Shown: positions 199 to 59,827 of the stretch, in pieces
How the letters are laid out: each line of letters opens with the position of its first letter
Position numbering within the stretch: the first letter of the stretch is position 1
From: Escherichia phage EAWsc9
Reading direction: 5' to 3' (one strand)
Length of the DNA: 64,000 bases
Sequence record: PQ341120.1
Translations under genes and position numbers: made by a program
Notes under the pieces: generated by a model
The model's input: the letters and a program-made list of their open reading frames with translations, nothing else
What the model was told of the DNA's origin: nothing
Databases searched by the model: none

Positions 199-393
199 TT
201 ATCCTCGCTTTAAACATTTGATTACAGACAACTCACCACCCATGCGAACGTCTTCAGTTCCATCAACCCACAAGACTGCATATGCTTCTTTAATTTGGGT
301 ATTGCCTAATTTAAACGCAGGCAGGACCTTTGAAATCATTCCAGGAATACCTACGCCTTTTAACTGAACGGTTTGTGATAAGAATAGTTGCAT
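199..393 (-). CDS. hypothetical protein, 64 aa
   Basis: track ORF; its ATG overlaps the upstream stop (TAATG), suggesting translational coupling. Confidence 0.5.
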   Translation of the reverse strand: MQLFLSQTVQLKGVGIPGMISKVLPAFKLGNTQIKEAYAVLWVDGTEDVRMGGELSVIKCLKRG

Positions 394-680
394 TAGAACC
401 TCGTTTGGAATCCATGTGATTTAACATTACCGCCATTAATATCAGATGAATTAATTTCACGTGCTGCAATTGGGGCAATATCAATGTCGCGTCTAAGCTT
501 GGTGATTGCCAGAGTATCGCGTCCATTAACAGTCCGGAATTCTAGTGGGCAAACTACATCAACATAGTTCTTAATGGAATCACGTGTTGGTTCACACCCA
601 GCAGGAACATTAGGACCTTTTTTAGAGAAAACAACTTCACAGAAATTTTTACGTGTATCAAAGTAAGTAGTCATAAACAT
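393..680 (-). CDS. hypothetical protein, 95 aa
   Basis: track ORF; preceded by GC hairpin plus CTTGAGGAAAAT Shine-Dalgarno. Confidence 0.55.
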   Translation of the reverse strand: MFMTTYFDTRKNFCEVVFSKKGPNVPAGCEPTRDSIKNYVDVVCPLEFRTVNGRDTLAITKLRRDIDIAPIAAREINSSDINGGNVKSHGFQTRF

Positions 681-718
681 AGTATTTTCCTCAAGGGGGC
701 TTTCGCCCCCATTTAAGA

Positions 719-1096
719 TTAGATATCAAATTCATTAAGAACTACATCAAAGATTGCTTCCAGGTGTTCAGGTTTTGCTTTGTTGCTCAGGATGTGACGA
801 ATCCAAGTTTTAACCAGAAGCTTGCGATTAACACCATTCCAGCAAGGATGAGTCCCTAAATCACGCTCACGGAAATCATCATCTAATGCGATTTTGAATA
901 CCGAACCTTCCATCGTGATTGAAAGAGTGATACCATTTTCAAATCGCATATAAACGTAGTTAGGAGTCATATACTGTTCAATTTCACACACTGAACCGTT
1001 TTGATGTTTCCACAAGCAAATAACTTCAGAAGAACCTGGGATGCAGTTAGAAACATATTTGCGTTCAAAGTTGATGTAGTTCATTTTATTCTCCAA
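719..1096 (-). CDS. hypothetical protein, 125 aa
   Basis: track ORF; SD GGAGAATAAA before ATG. Confidence 0.55.
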   Translation of the reverse strand: MENKMNYINFERKYVSNCIPGSSEVICLWKHQNGSVCEIEQYMTPNYVYMRFENGITLSITMEGSVFKIALDDDFRERDLGTHPCWNGVNRKLLVKTWIRHILSNKAKPEHLEAIFDVVLNEFDI

Positions 1097-7758: not shown

Positions 7759-7789
7759 AGTCATTTCCTCAAATTTTATAATCCGTAGG

Positions 7790-7825
7790 AGCATTATACT
7801 CTGCTCCCATGAGTTTGTACACTAC
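7790..7825 (-). promoter_or_regulatory. T4-type early promoter with -10 inside an inverted repeat (GGGAGC...GCTCCC)
   Basis: minus-sense GTGTACAAAC ... GAGTATAATG. Confidence 0.55.
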
Positions 7826-17344: not shown

Positions 17345-17379
17345 TTTATTCTCCAGTTTTATTTGGTAGCTCAGTATGG

Positions 17380-17415
17380 GACCATTATGTCATAGCCCCA
17401 TTTGGTTGTACACTA
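17380..17415 (-). promoter_or_regulatory. T4-type early promoter
   Basis: minus-sense GTGTACAACC ... ACATAATGG. Confidence 0.5.
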
Positions 17416-18904: not shown

Positions 18905-18930
18905 AAAAGGGACCCGAAGGTCCCTTTATA
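18905..18930 (-). terminator. rho-independent terminator after gene 32
   Basis: hairpin GGGACC-TTCG-GGTCCC plus T-run in minus sense. Confidence 0.7.
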
Positions 18931-26125: not shown

Positions 26126-27256
26126 ATGGAAAAATTTATGGCAGAGTTTGGACAAGGATACGTCCAAACGCCAGTTATATCAGAAAATAATGCCGTTAAA
26201 TTTAAAATGAGTATAGCAGGGAGCTGTACTCTTTCCACGGTGAAATCGTATATCAAATTTCAGGATGAACGAATTGGACCAACTACTTTTGGTAATGGTC
26301 TGACTCTATTGGAAATTGATACAACTACGAATAAAATTGTTAACACGAAAAACTATTCATTAACTAGCACACACGATGCAATCAGTCAGGCATTAATCAC
26401 CTTTGTGGAATCTGTTCCAGCCGGAAGATTGATTGCTTTTATTTCTTCAGGGAAACTAAATGCATCACAGACATTAATTGATTGGTTCCGTAAATGTGGT
26501 TCAAGAGCATTCCCGGAGAAATGGCTGATTGATAAAGTTGATACATCGTACTCGGCCTTTTATATAACCGGCCGGAATGTAATTGTTTCGGAGCATGTTA
26601 AGTATAATGACGGGAAGTTAGTTGAGGATGTTTCGACTCCGCTTGAAGTCATTTATGATACCTTTAGTGATATAGGAGCAACAGGCTATCCTGTACGCAT
26701 AACGGAAGACGAGAGCACGTATTCATCAACAGGTGATGGAACATCAACCACAATTAAAAGGTTCCCCACAGAGGACCTGGTGACTCCTATGGACACCTAT
26801 AACCTTTTACCTTTGGATGTGCTTTACTTGAAGTTTCAGATGTCATTTGACGCTGCACTGAAAGCTGCGGGGACCGTAAGGACTTCGATTCGATTCTTTA
26901 AAAGCCCCAGCACTTCTCCGATATCAAATACGAACATCGATATTGCAGCAAACGTTCCTGCCGGGGCTTGGGCGAGTTTCGAAAGATATGTCGAGATTCC
27001 GCCAGGAGCTGATGGCTTTACAGTAGTAACATCAAGAACTGTAGCTACCGGAACTGGGTCAATACGCAATATTGTTATTGGTGAGATAACCAGAGGTGAC
27101 TCGGCATTCAAACCAGCTGAATTTGGTGTCAACGGCATAAGGATGTCATATGCAAACGATACAACAAATACAGGCAATACAATTGTAACATTCCCGGATG
27201 CACAAGCTCCGAGAGCCGGCAAGATATACGCAGCCGAACTACGAGAAAAACAATAG
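26126..27256 (+). CDS. 35: tail fibre hinge protein gp35
   Basis: 376 aa; N-terminus MEKFMAEFGQGYVQTP and C-terminus KPAEFGVNGIR match T4 gp35. Confidence 0.93.
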   Translation: MEKFMAEFGQGYVQTPVISENNAVKFKMSIAGSCTLSTVKSYIKFQDERIGPTTFGNGLTLLEIDTTTNKIVNTKNYSLTSTHDAISQALITFVESVPAGRLIAFISSGKLNASQTLIDWFRKCGSRAFPEKWLIDKVDTSYSAFYITGRNVIVSEHVKYNDGKLVEDVSTPLEVIYDTFSDIGATGYPVRITEDESTYSSTGDGTSTTIKRFPTEDLVTPMDTYNLLPLDVLYLKFQMSFDAALKAAGTVRTSIRFFKSPSTSPISNTNIDIAANVPAGAWASFERYVEIPPGADGFTVVTSRTVATGTGSIRNIVIGEITRGDSAFKPAEFGVNGIRMSYANDTTNTGNTIVTFPDAQAPRAGKIYAAELREKQ

Positions 27257-27278
27257 GACTCTTCGGAGTCCTTTTTTC
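27256..27278 (+). terminator. rho-independent terminator after gene 35
   Basis: hairpin GGACTC-TTCG-GAGTCC followed by TTTTTT. Confidence 0.7.
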
Positions 27279-31312: not shown

Positions 31313-31328
31313 GAGGGGCTTCGGCCCC
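31313..31328 (+). other. GC hairpin between genes 37 and 38, directly before the gene 38 SD
   Basis: AGGGGC-TTCG-GCCCCT with no T-run; GGAGG SD follows. Confidence 0.5.
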
Positions 31329-31340
31329 TTGGAGGTTTAT

Positions 31341-35892: not shown

Positions 35893-35912
35893 AAGGACCC
35901 CGACGGGGTCCT
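35893..35912 (-). terminator. rho-independent terminator (hairpin flanked by A/T runs on both sides)
   Basis: GGACCCC-GAC-GGGGTCC. Confidence 0.65.
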
Positions 35913-37393: not shown

Positions 37394-37534
37394 TTACCAA
37401 ATTAACGAATGTACTGCCATTATAACATCAGAAATAAAAAGCACAACCTGCACTAATGCAAATACAACTCCATAATACAGCGCTACCAATAAGGCAGCAA
37501 GGGCTAACGAGTAGCCCAAGATTTTCTTAATCAT
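37394..37534 (-). CDS. small membrane protein A, 46 aa (MIKKILGYSLALAALLVALYYG...)
   Basis: overlaps upstream ORF B (ATGATTAA); hydrophobic. Confidence 0.45.
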   Translation of the reverse strand: MIKKILGYSLALAALLVALYYGVVFALVQVVLFISDVIMAVHSLIW

Positions 37535-37679
37535 TTTTATCCAATAATTTAAATAGTGTTAAAGTCGCTAATACACCTTGAGCTGTTGACTGCAGAAATA
37601 CTGAAGTTTCTCCAGTTATTAATGTTCCAACAAATAAAAATGACCAACAGAAAAAAGCTACGCCATGAACAAATTTCAT
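37527..37679 (-). CDS. small membrane protein B, 50 aa
   Basis: hairpin plus GAGGAAAAT SD upstream; hydrophobic. Confidence 0.45.
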   Translation of the reverse strand: MKFVHGVAFFCWSFLFVGTLITGETSVFLQSTAQGVLATLTLFKLLDKND

Positions 37680-37680
37680 A

Positions 37681-37735
37681 TTTTCCTCAAGGGCGTCCAA
37701 AGACGCCAGTTAATTTCAGATTATGACGATACCAT
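37681..37735. repeat. copy 1 of about 55-bp repeat R1 (GC hairpin + CTTGAGGAAAAT); copy 2 at 37945..38005
   Basis: near-identical sequence at the two positions. Confidence 0.85.
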
Positions 37736-37789
37736 TACAGCGCTACAGGCAGCAAGGGCTAACGAGTAGCCCAAGATTTTCTTAATCAT
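37721..37789 (-). CDS. 22-aa peptide A' (MIKKILGYSLALAACSAVMVSS), truncated duplicate of A
   Basis: first 13 codons identical to ORF A; looks like a signal peptide with lipobox-like LAAC. Confidence 0.4.
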   Translation of the reverse strand: MIKKILGYSLALAACSAVMVSS

Positions 37790-37944
37790 TTTTTCACGTA
37801 CCGTGCCAGACTTACAATTCCAGAAATAACCCATGCAATAAACATCGCGCCCATGAAAAATGTGCTTGGAGTCCAGACTCCCAAAAAGAAGCAGACTGAA
37901 CAAACCACGGCAATAATAAGTTCAATAAAAGCCAGAATAATCAT
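37786..37944 (-). CDS. small membrane protein B', 52 aa
   Basis: same upstream hairpin/SD module as ORF B; hydrophobic. Confidence 0.45.
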   Translation of the reverse strand: MIILAFIELIIAVVCSVCFFLGVWTPSTFFMGAMFIAWVISGIVSLARYVKK

Positions 37945-38005
37945 ATTTTCCTCAAGGGCGTCCAAAGACGCCAGTTAATTTCAGATTATGACGATGCCAT
38001 TGCAT
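37945..38005. repeat. copy 2 of repeat R1
   Basis: TTTTCCTCAAGGGCGTCCAAAGACGCCAGTTAATTTCAGATTATGACGAT(A/G)CCATT. Confidence 0.85.
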
Positions 38006-38033
38006 CACGTGTTCATTATGGAAATTACTCATA

Positions 38034-38480
38034 TTAATAGCTCTGCAGAATGAATTTAAAGTTATCAGCAAGCATGCGATTCATTTCTGAAAGGGTCTGG
38101 CAATCAGAACTATGCGAGCGAGTGAACGCCATTGCAATTTGACCTTTACCATAACCAGTTGTCAGAGGTTTCATTTTAGAAACTGGGACAAACAGGACTT
38201 CATAGATAACCCCATTGTTCGCCATTGTGCGAGACAGTTGAGAACGTTGTTTGCGGATGTGACTTAATACAGTGTCAAACCCTTGTTGTGAACGTTGGTT
38301 ACCAACATAAAAACGTGCAGCAACAATACGTGATTCGCCTTCACCTTTAACCACGAAATAAAAACCTGGTTGAGTGATAGCTTCTTTAGTCGGACGCCCG
38401 AGATAATTACCATTATGGATGTAAGCAACAGTGGTAGCGCCAGCATTCAGTACGTCACGACGGGTCATGTAAGTAGACAT
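38034..38480 (-). CDS. ndd: Ndd nucleoid disruption protein
   Basis: 148 aa; [70 protein letters not shown] match T4 Ndd. Confidence 0.93.
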
Positions 38481-38511: not shown

Positions 38512-38556
38512 CTCCAGTGGGGTCATTATACTCTGACCCCAAGAGTTTGTACACTA
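38512..38556 (-). promoter_or_regulatory. T4-type early promoter, -10 in the loop of inverted repeat GGGGTCA...TGACCCC; identical copy at 49725..49767
   Basis: minus-sense GTGTACAAAC ... GAGTATAATG. Confidence 0.6.
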
Positions 38557-41766: not shown

Positions 41767-41799
41767 AAAGCCTCATTAGGGGCCGAAGCCCCGATTAAT

Positions 41800-42772: not shown

Positions 42773-45007
42773 TTATTCCTTATTGGCCGCTTCCACGGCC
42801 TTCATGATTTGAGCAACGTTCTGTACTTGTTCAGTTGACATGGCGTTACGGTTATATAAAAAGTGTGAAACAATCGGGTGATTCTTTTCAAATTCAAAAA
42901 CCATTTTATCGCTTGTTACCGAAGCGTTTTTGGTCAGGTCGTCATAAATCTTATTACAAAGGACCAGAGTTTCCTGCATGGTCTTATCAACTGTTCCACT
43001 GTTATATGCGTTATAAGCAAAGAACTTATTGAACTGCATTAATTCGGCATAGTCAGTATTCACATCTTTCTGAACATCTTTTGCATAAAAATACTTGAAC
43101 ATAAAATTCAGTTCTGCATATTCAGACAGGATAGGAATATAATAACGCGAACGGCTTGAAGCGGCAATGTACTGGTCCGCATCAACCGCATCAATCAATT
43201 CCACATAACGATTGACTGCAGCTTCAATCAGACAATCACACTGCGCCAGCTTGGTAATCTTTTTCTGAAGCTGTGGACGAATAACACAGAATTCATTGAT
43301 TTCCAACAGGTTTGCCAGTTTACACAATGTCTGGGTCCCGAAGGTCGTGGTGCCATATTCTTGATTCAACGGGGAAATGCTACTGCGGTTAATGAATACA
43401 GCATAACCATCGATTTCCTCTGCATCAGCTGCACATGTAAATTCTTCAACAGACTGCCATTTGCCATTAGTTTTAGTCCAACGAATCAATGATGGAGTCT
43501 TTGACTTAACGCGCGCTTTCGGGTCAGCAACCGGAATCCAGTCTTTTACAAGGGCGGTCAGTTCAGACGTACGATAGATATTAACTGTATCGCCTTTAAA
43601 TCGTTCTTGAAGTTGAACCATCAGACGTGTTTGAATTTCGCTGGTTGGGTCAACGAACAATAGACTACTACCTTGTACAGTCGGGACTTTACCAGATGCT
43701 TTGAGCTTTTTGGCTTTCGCGCTGGTGTCATACAGCATTGAACTGATGCCCCGAATCATCGCAATTCGCCCTTTAGCATCGTCAATAACAATGTTCAAGG
43801 TATTATTCTGAATACCAAACATGCTCGTCAGGCTTGCAGTATTCGTGTTCGAGCTTGAGTTACGCAGACGTTTCAGACGGGTAGTGCTATAGATATCATA
43901 GACAACCCCGGCATTAATAAGGTCTTTGTCCAGCTCGAACATTTCATACATCTGGTTAAAGGTCAATTGCGATTTCGTAAATTTCGTTTCAGCATTACGA
44001 GCTTTCAGAAAATTACGAGCTTCATAACTCAGACTCTGTAATTCGCGATACGTGTGGCGGATACATTCTGATTCCTGCCATTTCTTACAATCATCTTCCA
44101 TGACTTTCTTATCAAGGGATTCAATACGTTCAACGATATTTGCGACCGTACGTTTATCCAGTGATAATGCTTCGCGAGAAGGTGCAATATCCAACGAACC
44201 CATCGGGAACTTAATAAAGACAACATCATTTTTGGCAGTCATCCAGGTTTTCTTTGTATAACCGTCAGCAATTGGATAAACAATTCCACCGTAAATTGCA
44301 TAAAGACCATAACGTTCTGGGCTGCTATAATCAATACGCTCTGGAGCATAATAATCATCAAATTCCGGGAAATAATTAATTTCGCCTACGCCTTGTACTT
44401 CAGCCAGTCCAGCAAATGGACGCATGATATATGCAATCTCGTGGCGGAACTTACCAAAATCATTACTATCAACCGGGACAACAACTTCAATCCCTGTGCG
44501 GTCGCCAGGTTTCATTGGTTCGCTAAAGGTTGGCTTAATCTGTGGACCATCACCATCCATATAAGCGACATAACCATTAACTTGACCATCATGATACGAA
44601 ATCAGGCTAAACGTCTCTGTATAACTGAACGGAGATTTAGAGCCCAAACCAAAGCCGCCAATAAAATCATTAGATTCAGCCTTGGATGATGCAAAGAAAC
44701 TGTTATACAGACCTGGAGTGTTTTCATCACCACGAATCTGGAAATCACTCATACCTGGACCAAAGTCACGACACACAAAACGTGGGTCCAGTTCACCAGG
44801 AGCCTGAACAATGAATTTATCCTGACAGCCATTGAGCATATGAGCATCAATCATATTGGTAATCAGCTCACGAACAACCGCGCGCACCTTATTTGTATAA
44901 AGGTCACTGGTCAGAATCTTAAACACCTTTGGAGATGCCTGGATTGTGAATGCTGATGCCTTGGCACCATTACCAAGGATTGTTTCCTTTTCAGTTTCTA
45001 AAATCAT
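42773..45007 (-). CDS. rIIA: rIIA protein
   Basis: 744 aa; position next to rIIB; N-terminal ATPase-like region. Confidence 0.88.
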   Translation of the reverse strand: MILETEKETILGNGAKASAFTIQASPKVFKILTSDLYTNKVRAVVRELITNMIDAHMLNGCQDKFIVQAPGELDPRFVCRDFGPGMSDFQIRGDENTPGLYNSFFASSKAESNDFIGGFGLGSKSPFSYTETFSLISYHDGQVNGYVAYMDGDGPQIKPTFSEPMKPGDRTGIEVVVPVDSNDFGKFRHEIAYIMRPFAGLAEVQGVGEINYFPEFDDYYAPERIDYSSPERYGLYAIYGGIVYPIADGYTKKTWMTAKNDVVFIKFPMGSLDIAPSREALSLDKRTVANIVERIESLDKKVMEDDCKKWQESECIRHTYRELQSLSYEARNFLKARNAETKFTKSQLTFNQMYEMFELDKDLINAGVVYDIYSTTRLKRLRNSSSNTNTASLTSMFGIQNNTLNIVIDDAKGRIAMIRGISSMLYDTSAKAKKLKASGKVPTVQGSSLLFVDPTSEIQTRLMVQLQERFKGDTVNIYRTSELTALVKDWIPVADPKARVKSKTPSLIRWTKTNGKWQSVEEFTCAADAEEIDGYAVFINRSSISPLNQEYGTTTFGTQTLCKLANLLEINEFCVIRPQLQKKITKLAQCDCLIEAAVNRYVELIDAVDADQYIAASSRSRYYIPILSEYAELNFMFKYFYAKDVQKDVNTDYAELMQFNKFFAYNAYNSGTVDKTMQETLVLCNKIYDDLTKNASVTSDKMVFEFEKNHPIVSHFLYNRNAMSTEQVQNVAQIMKAVEAANKE

Positions 45008-45483: not shown

Positions 45484-45539
45484 ATTTTCACCTCAAGGAT
45501 ATCCTAACGCACTTTTTACAGCTTGTACATAATAAAAAA

Positions 45540-45560
45540 AAAGGACCCGAAGGTCCTTTT
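45540..45560 (-). terminator. rho-independent terminator
   Basis: AGGACC-CGAA-GGTCCT plus T-run in minus sense. Confidence 0.65.
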
Positions 45561-45715: not shown

Positions 45716-45757
45716 GGACTTCTCCTATAAGACGGGAGAATATTCTCCCACATCTAT

Positions 45758-47590
45758 TTATAGTGTCGCATTCATCCAATCTTTACGCTGCTGGGAATCT
45801 TTACCGAAGAGCATTTCGAACAGTTCTTTCCAGTTGTCGGGCAATTGAACAACTTCGAATACTGGTTCGAGCAATACGCGTTTGTACTCAGCATCTTCCA
45901 GAGAACCAAGTCCCTTTATATATCTGATAGTATGCTTCGGAAGTTTATCCTTAGCTTCTTCATAATCAGGAAGAGAATAAAACCATTCTTGTTTATCTTT
46001 GAGCTGCGCAATAATAACAGGAGTTTTCACAAAGCGAATTCGTCCTTCATGGAACAGCTCTGGCCAGTTACTGAAAAACGCCAATAACGATGGATAGATA
46101 CTACCGACGCCATCCACATCCGCATCTGTCATGATAGCAATGTTTCGGTAATTCATATTCTCGGCCGGTTGTCCAATCGTTAACCCAGTAATTGCACACA
46201 CATCAAAGGCTTCGGCGTTCTTCATAACATCAACAGCTTTCAGGCCCCATGTGTTTTTAAACTTACCACGTAACGGATAAGCACCTTGCAATTCACGGTC
46301 GCGAACCTTGATAAATGGCCCGGTTGCAGAATCACCTTCGGTCAGGAATAGAGTCGTTTCCAGCTTATCATTGCCCCATTCGTTGGCCTTGATATGCTTT
46401 TGCACCTTGGCCTTTGAAGCTTTCTTATTCGCCTTGGTCTCTGCTGCTTTCTCTGCAGCCAATTTACGGGCTAATGCAGCTTCAACAATCGGCATAATCA
46501 GCGGTTCATTTTTCAGAATAGCTTGCGCGATTTTCTTGGCATCAATCTTAATGTGATTTCGAATTTCACCAGCCGGAGAAGTCAATCGCTCCTTAGTCTG
46601 GGAATCAAATCGCATGTTGCTCATATCGCGAATGAACATAAGCATGGTGAGGCATTCCTTAACTCGTGCCTTTGTCACCTCAATGCCTTTATATTTGCGT
46701 TTAATGGCTGGCTGAAGATGTTCACAGATATCATCCATAACACATTCAACGTGGTGTCCACCATTCTTTGTATGAATGTTGTTGACATAAGTCAACTGGC
46801 GGAAACCATCCGGGCTAGTCGTAAAGGCCATCGATACTGTATCAGTTTCCTGGATAACAACTTCGGTTCCGAATTGCTTGGCGAACTTCTTGAAATTGCC
46901 ATCAACCTTTTTACCATTAAAGGTAAACTGAATATCTGGATAAACAACCGCAAGAGTCTGCAGACGGTCCAATGTAATATCCAGATAAATCTGGGACAGG
47001 CTATTTTCTTCAAAGTGACTGAAGTCCGGAACAAAAATAACAGTTGTACCTTTACCCTTAGATTTCTTGGTAGACCAACCTTTGTTTTCCATACCATTGG
47101 AGCAGTTAACGGTGATTTCATTTGCGCCGTCGGCGGTAATCCCGGTGAACAATACAGAGAAAATATTGGTCAGAGAAGACCCGACGCCATTCATCCCACC
47201 AGTTTTACGTTCAGCATCATCACCGAAGTTACCACCTGCTTTTGGAATAGTCCATGCTGCAACCGGGCCAGGGATTTGTTCACCGTTTTGGTCTGTAACC
47301 ATTGCTTGTGGAATACCACGGCCATTATCGGAAACCGAAATCTGATTATCTTTAATTTGGACATCAATTTTATTGGCAAATTTAAAACTGGTGCGAATTG
47401 CTTCATCAACAGAGTTATCGATAATTTCATCAATCAGTTTTACAATACCAGGAACATAGCTTACGGACTTATATTCACCAAACAAGAATCGCTCATGCGC
47501 TTCATTTGAACTGGAACCAATATACATCCCGGAACGTTTTTTGATATGCTCGACGTCCGAGAGTACTTTAATTTCATTATTAATCATCAT
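45758..47590 (-). CDS. 39: DNA topoisomerase II large (ATPase) subunit, single fused ORF covering T4 gp39 plus gp60
   Basis: 610-aa continuous ORF; GHKL ATPase N-terminus and toprim C-terminus; no frameshift or gap. Confidence 0.93.
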   Translation of the reverse strand: MMINNEIKVLSDVEHIKKRSGMYIGSSSNEAHERFLFGEYKSVSYVPGIVKLIDEIIDNSVDEAIRTSFKFANKIDVQIKDNQISVSDNGRGIPQAMVTDQNGEQIPGPVAAWTIPKAGGNFGDDAERKTGGMNGVGSSLTNIFSVLFTGITADGANEITVNCSNGMENKGWSTKKSKGKGTTVIFVPDFSHFEENSLSQIYLDITLDRLQTLAVVYPDIQFTFNGKKVDGNFKKFAKQFGTEVVIQETDTVSMAFTTSPDGFRQLTYVNNIHTKNGGHHVECVMDDICEHLQPAIKRKYKGIEVTKARVKECLTMLMFIRDMSNMRFDSQTKERLTSPAGEIRNHIKIDAKKIAQAILKNEPLIMPIVEAALARKLAAEKAAETKANKKASKAKVQKHIKANEWGNDKLETTLFLTEGDSATGPFIKVRDRELQGAYPLRGKFKNTWGLKAVDVMKNAEAFDVCAITGLTIGQPAENMNYRNIAIMTDADVDGVGSIYPSLLAFFSNWPELFHEGRIRFVKTPVIIAQLKDKQEWFYSLPDYEEAKDKLPKHTIRYIKGLGSLEDAEYKRVLLEPVFEVVQLPDNWKELFEMLFGKDSQQRKDWMNATL

Positions 47591-47607: not shown

Positions 47608-47642
47608 GAGGTATTATAAGTCACATATTTTAAAGCAAAAAG
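47608..47642 (-). promoter_or_regulatory. MotA-dependent middle promoter for gene 39
   Basis: minus-sense TTTGCTTTA (MotA box) about 12 bp before TTATAATAC. Confidence 0.55.
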
Positions 47643-47660
47643 GCCCGAAGGCCTTTTATT
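47636..47660 (-). terminator. rho-independent terminator
   Basis: GGCC-CGAA-GGCC with T-runs on both strands. Confidence 0.6.
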
Positions 47661-49098: not shown

Positions 49099-49144
49099 AA
49101 TATTCTCCTCATTGATAGGGCAAAAACCCTATCATTTTTATAAT

Positions 49145-49724: not shown

Positions 49725-49767
49725 TATTCTCCAGTGGGGTCATTATACTCTGACCCCAAGAGTTTGT
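49725..49767 (-). promoter_or_regulatory. T4-type early promoter, 41-bp identical copy of the one at 38512..38556
   Basis: CCAGTGGGGTCATTATACTCTGACCCCAAGAGTTTGTACAC at both sites. Confidence 0.6.
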
Positions 49768-57344: not shown

Positions 57345-57380
57345 TTGAAATAATTATACCGCTTCTATTAAAAGCAAAAA
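57345..57380 (-). promoter_or_regulatory. candidate MotA-dependent middle promoter
   Basis: minus-sense TTTGCTTTTA then GGTATAAT about 12 bp downstream. Confidence 0.4.
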
Positions 57381-57400
57381 GGGACTCCGAAGAGTCCCTA
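57378..57400 (-). terminator. rho-independent terminator after soc; hairpin 18-mer identical to the one at 1617..1634
   Basis: GGGACTC-CGAA-GAGTCCC plus T-run in minus sense. Confidence 0.7.
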
Positions 57401-59627: not shown

Positions 59628-59659
59628 AGTTTCCTCATTTCAATGGCCCCGAAGGACCA

Positions 59660-59827
59660 TTATACTGTAGGTTTATCGTCTTTATTCTTACGCTTTTTTG
59701 ATGGGATTTGTTCAGGGCCTTTATTGACAACTGCCCCGGAAGTGGTACCTGTTGCGATATTAGTTGGGTTTCCACCTGCATCACCGGCAACCATATCTTC
59801 ATTGATAAAATCTTTGAATGTTTTCAT
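59660..59827 (-). CDS. hypothetical protein, 55 aa
   Basis: ATG to TAA; below track cutoff. Confidence 0.4.
   Translation of the reverse strand: MKTFKDFINEDMVAGDAGGNPTNIATGTTSGAVVNKGPEQIPSKKRKNKDDKPTV

Follow-up and report, generated by a model that had tools for sequence, protein, structure and literature searches.

Intercistronic hairpins that stabilise mRNA are reportedly exemplified by the REP elements of Escherichia coli, in work of 1987 ascribed to Newbury and colleagues. In phage T4, extra-stable hairpins of the C(UUCG)G or CUUCGG type are abundant and mostly intergenic (according to the accounts of Tuerk 1988 given in PMC8948821 and PMC7165471), and a 5' CUUCGG hairpin stabilises the mRNA of gene 32 (Tuerk 1988 and Gorski 1985, as related in PMC8948821). 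Two further kinds of structure lie close to the initiation regions of T4-like phages: the PeSL (promoter-early stem-loop) cassettes (PMC2839356, PMC4122927), in which the Shine-Dalgarno sequence (SD) and the start codon belonging to a small accessory gene come after a stem-loop of the GGGG...CCCC type, and the T4 structures that sequester or position the SD (e, soc, 49 and I-TevI; 25 and 38; PMC3014915). Intrinsic terminators, finally, combine a stable GC-rich hairpin with a position at or near the end of a cistron. Hairpins placed immediately 5' of an SD have, to our knowledge, not been defined as a class.

The DNA analysed here (hereafter the window) is a 64,000-nucleotide stretch of Escherichia phage EAWsc9 (PQ341120.1), which sequence matches to relatives identify as a T4-like, Gaprivervirus-like myovirus. 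Its first 3 kb are closest to Escherichia phage pEC-M719-6WT.2 (99.3% identity), and share ~93% identity with the Gaprivervirus phages SP18 and VR26; in all, roughly 970 T4-like genomes have a match there. By the annotation of SP18 and T4 the gene starting at 680 is gp30.6 and its upstream neighbour gp30.7, and annotated relatives give the gene order at 37-38 kb as ndd, stp, ac-slot, 52.1 and gene 52. Most of the window's genes are carried by the minus strand, and the site sequences are quoted as minus-strand RNA. The T4 records NC_000866 and AF158101 have no regulatory feature annotated at the 30.7/30.6 or stp sites; an Rfam scan of the whole window returned no family above threshold, and only chance-level matches around 500-900.

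A preliminary description of the window had reported three genes (starts at 680, 37679 and 37944), each preceded by a stable GC hairpin and an identical SD context. The hairpin-SD-AUG sequences are as stated there and the stems are indeed stable, but the number of independent sites is two rather than three. In isolation the 6-bp stems fold with -13.3 kcal/mol (site 1) and -10.0 kcal/mol (sites 2 and 3), and a thermodynamic model lets all three form with a probability of ~1.0 in their sequence context. The stem is followed by UUGAGGAAAAUACU and then AUG (start at 680) at site 1, and by CUUGAGGAAAAU and then AUG (starts 37679 and 37944) at sites 2 and 3. The described abutment of hairpin and upstream stop is found only at site 1, with the stop of 30.7 lying 8 nt 5' of the stem; at the other two sites the hairpin sits within stp or within a stp remnant (Table 1).

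Table 1. Features of the 30.7/30.6 and stp-52.1 loci and further members of the hairpin-SD class in the window (positions of the window; D1 and D2, direct repeats)
Feature	Coordinates	Strand	Remark
Spacer UU, SD GAGG (692-689), AAAAUACU and AUG (680-678) of gene 30.6 (393..680)	678..694	-	SP18 and T4 annotation
Hairpin 1: GGGGGC GAAA GCCCCC, 6 bp, GNRA tetraloop	695..710	-	30.7/30.6 intercistronic gap
30.7 stop UAA (721-719) and spacer UCUUAAAU (718-711)	711..721	-	UCUU predicted to pair with the SD in the window lineage
Class member GAGGGGC UUCG GCCCCUU, GGAGG directly after	31313..31330	+ (late strand)	
Intact gene 52.1 (37394..37534) and the other D2 copy (37492-37538)	37394..37538	-	
D1, 64 nt, 97% identical, spacing 265: stp 3' remnant, SD and AUG	copy 1 37676..37739, copy 2 37941-38004	-	
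CUU GAGG AAAAU AUG: SD and start of the ac-like ORF (37527..37679, 50 aa)	37677..37691	-	'acridine resistance' annotation in closest relative
Hairpin copy A: GGCGUC UUUG GACGCC, inside truncated stp remnant	37692..37707	-	
D2 copy (37747-37793) and remnant ORF MIKKILGYSLALAACSAVMVSS, then stop (37789..37721)	37721..37793	-	52.1 5' end fused to stp remnant
CUU GAGG AAAAU AUG: SD and start of the family-B small membrane-protein ORF (37786..37944, 52 aa)	37942..37956	-	
stp, 26 codons and stop; missed in the preliminary description	37952..38032	-	stop UGA (37954-37952) overlaps SD
Hairpin copy B: GGCGUC UUUG GACGCC, inside stp	37957..37972	-	relatives' stem substitutions all keep pairing
Class member GGGGC UUCG GCCCC, 4 nt 5' of denB.1-like SD	41779..41792	-	
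Class member GGCCGU GGAA GCGGCC, last rIIA codons, 3 nt 5' of rIIB SD	42785..42800	-	
Class member GUGGGAGA AUAU UCUCCCGU, 5 nt 5' of AGGAG	45732..45751	-	
Class member UGAUAGGGU UUUU GCCCUAUCA, 2 nt 5' of GAGGAG	49113..49134	-	
Class member UAAUGGUCC UUCG GGGCCAUUG, 4 nt 5' of the SD of a primase-like gene	59641..59662	-	z = -3.4

Junctions between 30.7 and 30.6 were gathered from annotated phages, from IMG/VR (pattern scan, 14 contigs) and from one metagenome scan (a further 7), and the orthologous hairpin is present in all 21 distinct junction sequences collected, including that of T4 (AGGGGC UUCA GCCCCU). The stem exists in 11 distinct versions, in which 97% of cells are paired; its variants comprise GGGGGC/GCCCCC, GGAGGC/GCCUCC, GGGAGC/GCUCCC and AGGGGC/GCCCCU, with GGGGGC/GCUCCC as a G.U intermediate, and compensatory double changes from G-C to A-U affect three of the six pairs. 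The covariation score was reached by none of 500 shuffles, and slid registers collapse. The loop is less constant (GAAA, UUCG as the commonest, UUUG, UUCA, UUAU and, once, CGAA), and this variation argues for stability and against recognition of the loop. Spacing at the junction varies by 2-6 nt among orthologues.

The second hairpin is made of coding sequence. The VR25 and T4 annotations describe stp as 'activator of host PrrC lysyl-tRNA endonuclease' (the PrrC anticodon nuclease). Its final codons GGC GUC UUU GGA CGC C(CU), encoding G-V-F-G-R-P, form hairpin copy B, and it ends with the UGA within 'CUUGAGG', so that the stop and the SD of the following gene overlap. The same arrangement is found in T4 with a textbook C(UUCG)G loop (GGCGUC UUCG GACGCC AG UGA GGAAAAUAUG). 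Across 15 distinct sequences, every substitution in the stp stem keeps pairing (C->U opposite G, A->G opposite U, C16->U opposite G), and the Phe codon of the loop alternates between UUC and UUU, so that the loop is C(UUUG)G in the window but C(UUCG)G in T4 and the majority of relatives. Ordinary synonymous variation is seen in about half of codons 1-19. Such a pattern of substitution is what one would anticipate where a coding sequence also has to form an RNA structure.

Compensatory changes at one locus and structure-preserving synonymous changes at the other thus uphold the hairpins as real RNA-level elements under selection, and this selection appears to act on thermodynamic stability, not on sequence. 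We are highly confident that the window contains two separate, anciently conserved and very stable tetraloop hairpins of T4-family early polycistronic mRNAs, the first between 30.7 and 30.6 and the second formed by the final stp codons, that both are located 2-3 nt before an ordinary consensus SD and one was copied a further time by tandem stacking, and that they were selected as RNA structures and not as a sequence motif or as protein-binding loops and are not canonical intrinsic terminators. When this identity is taken together with the decay-boundary mechanism discussed below, we still lean towards the whole account, if only slightly.

Both hairpins belong to the known class of extra-stable T4 mRNA tetraloop hairpins, which is characterised by a short GC stem with a C-G closing pair around UUCG or GAAA, by occurrence on the sense strand only, and by a mostly intercistronic position. 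At site 1 the loop is C(GAAA)G (C(UUCG)G in most orthologues) and the structure is conserved by compensatory change; the window's stp loop, UUUG, departs from the class as a synonymous Phe-codon variant that is not UNCG. The T4 orthologues of the two sites, with UUCA and UUCG loops, fall into the class as well. With respect to position, site 1 is intercistronic, and the stp and rIIA hairpins occupy the last codons of the upstream ORF.

What the sites share as sequence is far less than had been supposed. The exact 12-mer CTTGAGGAAAAT occurs three times in the window (0.02 expected); since sites 2 and 3 lie inside one direct repeat, only two of the sites are independent, and these have different stems and no more than the 10-mer TGAGGAAAAT as a meaningful common part. 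This 10-mer has seven occurrences in the window, exclusively on the minus strand, and five of them lie just 5' of a start in a crude gene map (which is unreliable at the other two, 18398 and 39079). Past the hairpins, conservation is limited to UGAGGAAAAU, the usual SD context of the T4 family (7 window sites). As the bases between stem and GAGG vary in relatives at both junctions (the 10-mer being preceded as in CC/UUGAGG, CCUUAC/UGAGG, CC/UUUGAGG, CCAG/UGAGG and GCUAA/UGAGG), the extra 'CU' of the 12-mer is a coincidence, and the identical 12-mer itself is the product of duplication plus chance.

The recurrent motif of hairpin plus CUUGAGGAAAAU put forward in the preliminary description accordingly dissolves into one local duplication and the consensus SD of the T4 family, with stems that differ between the independent sites. 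A dispersed, repeated regulatory module is not borne out: the same hairpin plus 12-mer was not encountered at independent loci in the window or in the relatives compared, two of the three copies are one duplication, and only the generic SD 10-mer is common to both independent sites.

The third copy of the site arose by recombination, which placed in tandem a segment running from the 3' end of stp through the hairpin, the SD and a small membrane-protein gene into the 5' end of 52.1. Besides D1, the locus contains the repeat D2 (47 nt, 100% identical, copies 255 nt apart). The fusion joins the first ~20 codons of 52.1 (with a few bases deleted) to the last 15 of stp at ..GCUGUA/AUGG.., a junction that is also present in phage DCP80. 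In different phages the stp-52.1 slot harbours different small membrane-protein genes, which fall into two unrelated families: family A is ac-like (T4 Ac and the window ORF 37679..37527, with 39.6% identity to T4 Ac), and family B resembles VR7 gp281 and includes the window ORF 37944..37786. The closest relative carries A only and VR25 B only, the window and DCP80 have B then A, and the JS98-like genomes have A then B with a different junction (microhomology GAGUAAU), which is contiguous in 7 database records. These JS98-like genomes also possess two stp copies of different allelic types, one represented by a stretch of 15 residues and the other by FYRNNLKTKGVFGR. The differences in junction, order and stp allele imply that alternative cassettes were stacked at least twice. 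With every stacking the hairpin-SD was regenerated before the incoming gene; the segment of stp 3' end, hairpin and SD was carried ahead of that gene each time, which explains the 'R1 copies' of the preliminary description.

One may go further and view the promoter-less hairpin-SD joints as the intra-operon counterpart of PeSLs, i.e. as short conserved expression adaptors that would allow unrelated small membrane-protein genes to replace one another or to be added in tandem at one fixed location (here stp-52.1) with their translation guaranteed. We consider this possible, but rather doubtful.

The arrangement extends beyond the three sites. A strict scan (stem of >=5 bp with >=4 G-C pairs, 0-6 nt, SD, 3-10 nt, start codon and open frame) recovered 10 hairpin-SD-AUG arrangements, 9 of them independent, versus 0 in the reversed-sequence control. 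Of the 21 sense-strand hairpins situated no more than 60 nt 5' of a start codon, 11 terminate 8-16 nt away from it, and the remainder are hairpins with a U-tract or hairpins overlapping a -10 box, i.e. terminators and PeSL-type promoters. UUCG-loop hairpins are confined to the sense strand (10/10 sense, 0 antisense); the same bias has been reported for T4 by Gold and colleagues (PMC7165471), and it argues for a function in RNA and not in DNA. When the same criteria were applied to the homologous 67 kb of T4, only three arrangements qualified: those at 30.7/30.6 and stp/ac, which are the independent sites of the preliminary description, and another ahead of dmd. At the rIIA/rIIB divide T4 has GGCC CUUGC GGCC in the same place, with a 4-bp stem that falls under the 5-bp threshold of the scan, and in the relative L067 a double synonymous change of Ala codons (GCC/GCG -> GCU/GCA) keeps the pair; this divide is a fourth conserved case. 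Seeing that 3 of the 10 window arrangements are kept in T4, many may be dispensable.

As to what the hairpins do, the likeliest mechanism is mRNA punctuation in the form of a decay boundary, which we propose tentatively and with rather less than even confidence. An endonuclease (RNase E, or RegB at GGAG-type SDs) would cut in the AU-rich, ribosome-free initiation region of the downstream cistron, and the hairpin just 5' of the cut would halt 3'-to-5' exonucleases, so that the upstream cistron would be protected and the lifetimes of the neighbouring cistrons uncoupled. A stem placed directly 5' of an AU-rich, cleavage-prone initiation region would be compatible with such a boundary. Because the hairpins are positioned relative to the downstream SD, it is plausible that they help to relate the expression of neighbouring early cistrons to one another; their tight spacing to this SD would fit a translational role too.

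The closest analogues of a decay boundary are the REP elements and the 5' stabiliser of T4 gene 32 (the latter as portrayed in the secondary accounts cited above), with which the present hairpins share that they are stable structures in polycistronic mRNA, that they may block exonucleases or protect an end, and that cistron lifetimes may differ as a result. They differ from REPs in being far shorter and in having no repeated sequence, and a stabilising role is suggested here by analogy. The fit to the decay boundary is uneven among sites. At stp and rIIA the hairpin lies within the upstream ORF and the stop codon comes 4-6 nt (stp) or 10-12 nt (rIIA, window) after the stem, so that an exonuclease stopped there would have to come to rest a few nt 3' of the stem for the protected message to be complete; td/frd, with its stop ~14-16 nt past the stem, fits the model poorly. 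Our literature search found no T4 transcript-end data set and no half-life values for these sites. Two other functions involving the same nucleases were considered and set aside: an obstacle to scanning by RNase E, as simple orthogonal stem-loops are readily bypassed by this enzyme (PMC9943677), and a target of RegB, as the SDs at these sites read GAGG in place of GGAG and RegB does not depend on upstream information (PMC1702504).

A device acting at the level of translation, with the hairpin as part of the downstream initiation region and with re-initiation or coupling as its outcome, is a less probable reading. The hairpin could dock on the 30S platform, could limit the backward movement of terminating ribosomes and so favour re-initiation at an AUG 9-14 nt away, or, at 30.7/30.6 in the window lineage, could seed a helix in which the SD stays masked for as long as no ribosome has terminated on the upstream gene. 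Several observations speak for it: hairpin placement tracks the SD (gap 0-6 nt) and not the upstream stop (from 36 nt inside the ORF to 61 nt before), the stp stop overlaps the SD at 9 nt from the AUG (a classic re-initiation geometry), and T4 offers precedents for structures in initiation regions that are inhibitory (e, soc, 49) or enhancing (25, 38; PMC3014915). The same review of T4 translational structures contains no class of this kind (PMC3014915), and the 2-6 nt variation in spacing among orthologues also weighs against the device.

The predicted accessibility of the SD bears on this reading in both directions. For the window lineage the model predicts pairing between the SD of 30.6 and the UCUU closely following the 30.7 stop; the modelled unpaired probability of this SD is 0.01-0.3 in three lineages (the window's, the JS98-like one and L033); in T4-type genomes the SD is predicted to be free. 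The lower helix that pairs the SD is thus specific to certain lineages and comes without covariation: in an RNAalifold analysis of 18 sequences, covariation backs the apical hairpin only and the remaining helices are invariant. Breaking the stems in silico (by complementing the 5' arm) had no consistent effect on SD or AUG accessibility across 10 junctions. The 'exposed SD' of the preliminary description finds no support in these results, since the predicted exposure is unremarkable (mean unpaired probability of the SD in the thermodynamic model 0.14 at site 1 and 0.28-0.42 at sites 2 and 3) and stem breaking does not alter it consistently; an 'insulator keeping the SD exposed' was rejected on the same in silico test. 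A long-range pairing of the end of 30.7 with the initiation region of 30.6 was likewise discarded, as a single-sequence prediction (z = -2.95) that RNAalifold does not back. What may exist at 30.7/30.6 is a weaker, lineage-specific layer on top of the decay boundary, in which the extended stem would pair UCUU with the 30.6 SD and couple 30.6 initiation to ribosomes terminating on 30.7. The hairpins resemble the SD-sequestering and SD-positioning structures of T4 in that RNA structure lies beside an initiation region, but they probably belong to neither group: the core stem contains neither SD nor AUG and is not situated between them, and SD pairing is a predicted, lineage-specific extension at 30.7/30.6 only.

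We judge it unlikely that the hairpins are transcriptional attenuators, weak terminators or pause hairpins that reduce read-through into the downstream early gene. A GC-rich hairpin within an operon does invite the comparison, and the PeSL stem-loop of phage phi1/RB49 cut lacZ expression about as strongly as the rrnB T1 terminator (PMC2839356). The record of phage vB_EcoM-G28 even labels the stp hairpin 'putative transcriptional terminator, -10.30', but this label is an automatic prediction in a record without stp. At each of the three sites the 8 bases past the stem include only 2 U, where an intrinsic terminator would have at least 5-6, the sequence past the SD is A-rich, and a terminator scan did not call the three hairpins on the sense strand. 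In the same genome genuine terminators are clearly recognisable (hairpins with U-tracts and UUUUUAUUUU-type tails, at unit ends, with early promoters next). Site 1 follows a stop but lies within an operon, and copies B and A are inside stp and its remnant, where termination would yield non-stop messages. Thus, in spite of their stability and their place at or near a cistron end, the three hairpins do not qualify as canonical intrinsic terminators: they have no U-tract, and an SD and the next gene of their operon come directly behind them. The terminator function suggested in the preliminary description is not supported, given the U-poor tails, the two copies in coding or remnant sequence and the different look of the window's real terminators.

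It is less likely again that the element works at the level of DNA, with the inverted repeat and SD serving mainly as a homology patch or structure for the recombination that swaps cassettes (a promoter-less relative of PeSLs). Such a role would agree with the variable slot past the stp hairpin-SD, with the at least two independent tandem stackings of differing junctions and stp alleles, and with the recombination documented at PeSLs (PMC2839356, PMC4122927). The tandem junctions, however, fall at microhomologies within 52.1 and stp (GAGUAAU; ..UGUA/AUGG..), that is in flanking coding sequence and outside the hairpin, and the 30.7/30.6 hairpin is flanked by two conserved genes with no variable slot between them, so that the association with cassette shuffling known from PeSLs extends to the stp-52.1 slot only. 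UUCG loops, moreover, occur strictly on the sense strand and substitutions tolerate G.U pairing, both of which are signatures of RNA. The sites do resemble the end of a PeSL cassette in having a stable stem-loop with SD and start codon on its 3' side. A promoter scan found no sigma-70-like promoter at or beside the three hairpins, and with no promoter these sites lie outside the definition of PeSLs. A hidden promoter, and with it PeSL membership, was dismissed for the same reason; the hairpin is 2-3 nt from the SD. True PeSL-like units, with a stem-loop overlapping the -10 box, do occur elsewhere in the window (38541-38518, 49758-49735 and 7809-7786). That the sites are meaningless GC palindromes next to SD-like strings is effectively refuted by the covariation of the stems, their conservation from the window phage to T4 and the empty reversed control, even though short two-copy matches are often due to chance, as the extra 'CU' of the 12-mer is.

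The kind of element is therefore one already known, a piece of T4-phage mRNA punctuation and not a new repeated regulatory element, with the punctuating role itself being what we infer. An apparent recurrent regulatory motif resolves to a consensus ribosome-binding site beside two old T4-family hairpins, plus a duplication, and an unannotated 26-codon stp has been recovered whose stop and last codons make up the "motif". The T4 orthologues are found at ~129,446-129,486, at ~165,498-165,530 and at the rIIA/rIIB divide, and these three cases, backed by compensatory or structure-preserving change, make the role of the long-known hairpins directly testable. The stp-52.1 slot, for its part, illustrates on a small scale the stacking of alternative small membrane-protein genes in T4-like phages.

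The canonical terminators of the window are a class apart from its hairpin-SD arrangements, in which a stable tetraloop hairpin is followed, after 0-6 nt, by a Shine-Dalgarno sequence (SD) and a start codon. Each of these terminators consists of a hairpin (the loop being mostly UUCG) with a U-tract on its 3' side, and after several of them an early promoter is found at a distance of approximately 30-50 nt or less. The early promoters resembling PeSL (the promoter-early stem-loop cassette of T4-type phages) have a TATAAT -10 box bracketed by a stem-loop (e.g., UGGGGUCA GAGUAUAA UGACCCCA), a -35 element reading GTGTACAA and an A-rich upstream region.

Features located in the window, with counterparts in relatives
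Feature	Position	Strand	Remarks
PeSL-like early promoter	7786-7809	minus	
PeSL-like early promoter	17376-17401	minus	
PeSL-like early promoter	38518-38541	minus	24-mer identical to 49735-49758
PeSL-like early promoter	49735-49758	minus	24-mer identical to 38518-38541
Canonical terminator	1616-1635	minus	
Canonical terminator	18906-18927	minus	
Canonical terminator	27255-27272	plus	
Canonical terminator	35894-35912	minus	
Canonical terminator	45539-45560	minus	
Canonical terminator	47638-47657	minus	
Canonical terminator	57380-57399	minus	
Hairpin in final rIIA codons	42785-42800	minus	also relative L067, 369-384; start of T4 record
stp-52.1 slot	37394-38036	minus	relatives L013/L014, 2117-2900; L003
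stp (26 codons)	37952-38032	minus	
610-aa ORF	45758-47590	minus	

The hairpin at the end of rIIA ends 3 nt before the classic ribosome-binding site of rIIB; it is kept from T4 to the window phage, and in one relative (L067) a base pair of its stem is preserved by a double synonymous change of Ala codons. At the 30.7/30.6 junction, JS98-like phages (L028-L030, L034, L035) carry the compensatory variant GGAGGC UUCG GCCUCC UUU. The metagenome contig OCHD01000040.1 combines the stem of the JS98-like phages, unchanged, with the loop CGAA instead of UUCG, its reverse complement, as though the centre of the palindrome were turned round. In Shigella phage SP18 the hairpin of the 30.6 initiation region is intact and the SD context is changed to UUGAGGCAAAU. 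We also observed that the 5' arm of the JS98-like variant is SD-like (GGAGG) and that its 3' arm and flank are similar to the 16S 3' end (CCUCCUUU); both likenesses are probably coincidental.

Both pEC-M719-6WT.2, the closest relative, and DCP80 contain the stp gene without annotation, and in the record of vB_EcoM-G28 its hairpin is labelled 'putative transcriptional terminator', with no gene marked. Elsewhere in the window, one 610-aa ORF occupies the position of the split T4 genes 39 and 60, which suggests a putative unsplit large topoisomerase subunit, devoid of the bypass (hop) element.

The variable slot between stp and 52.1 harbours small membrane-protein genes of two mutually unrelated families (A, ac-like; B, VR7 gp281-like), whose tandem stacking arose in at least two independent events. 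The order is B then A in the window and DCP80, joined between codon ~20 of 52.1 and codon ~11 of stp, and A then B in JS98-like phages, where the join lies at GAGUAAU and two differing stp alleles are found.
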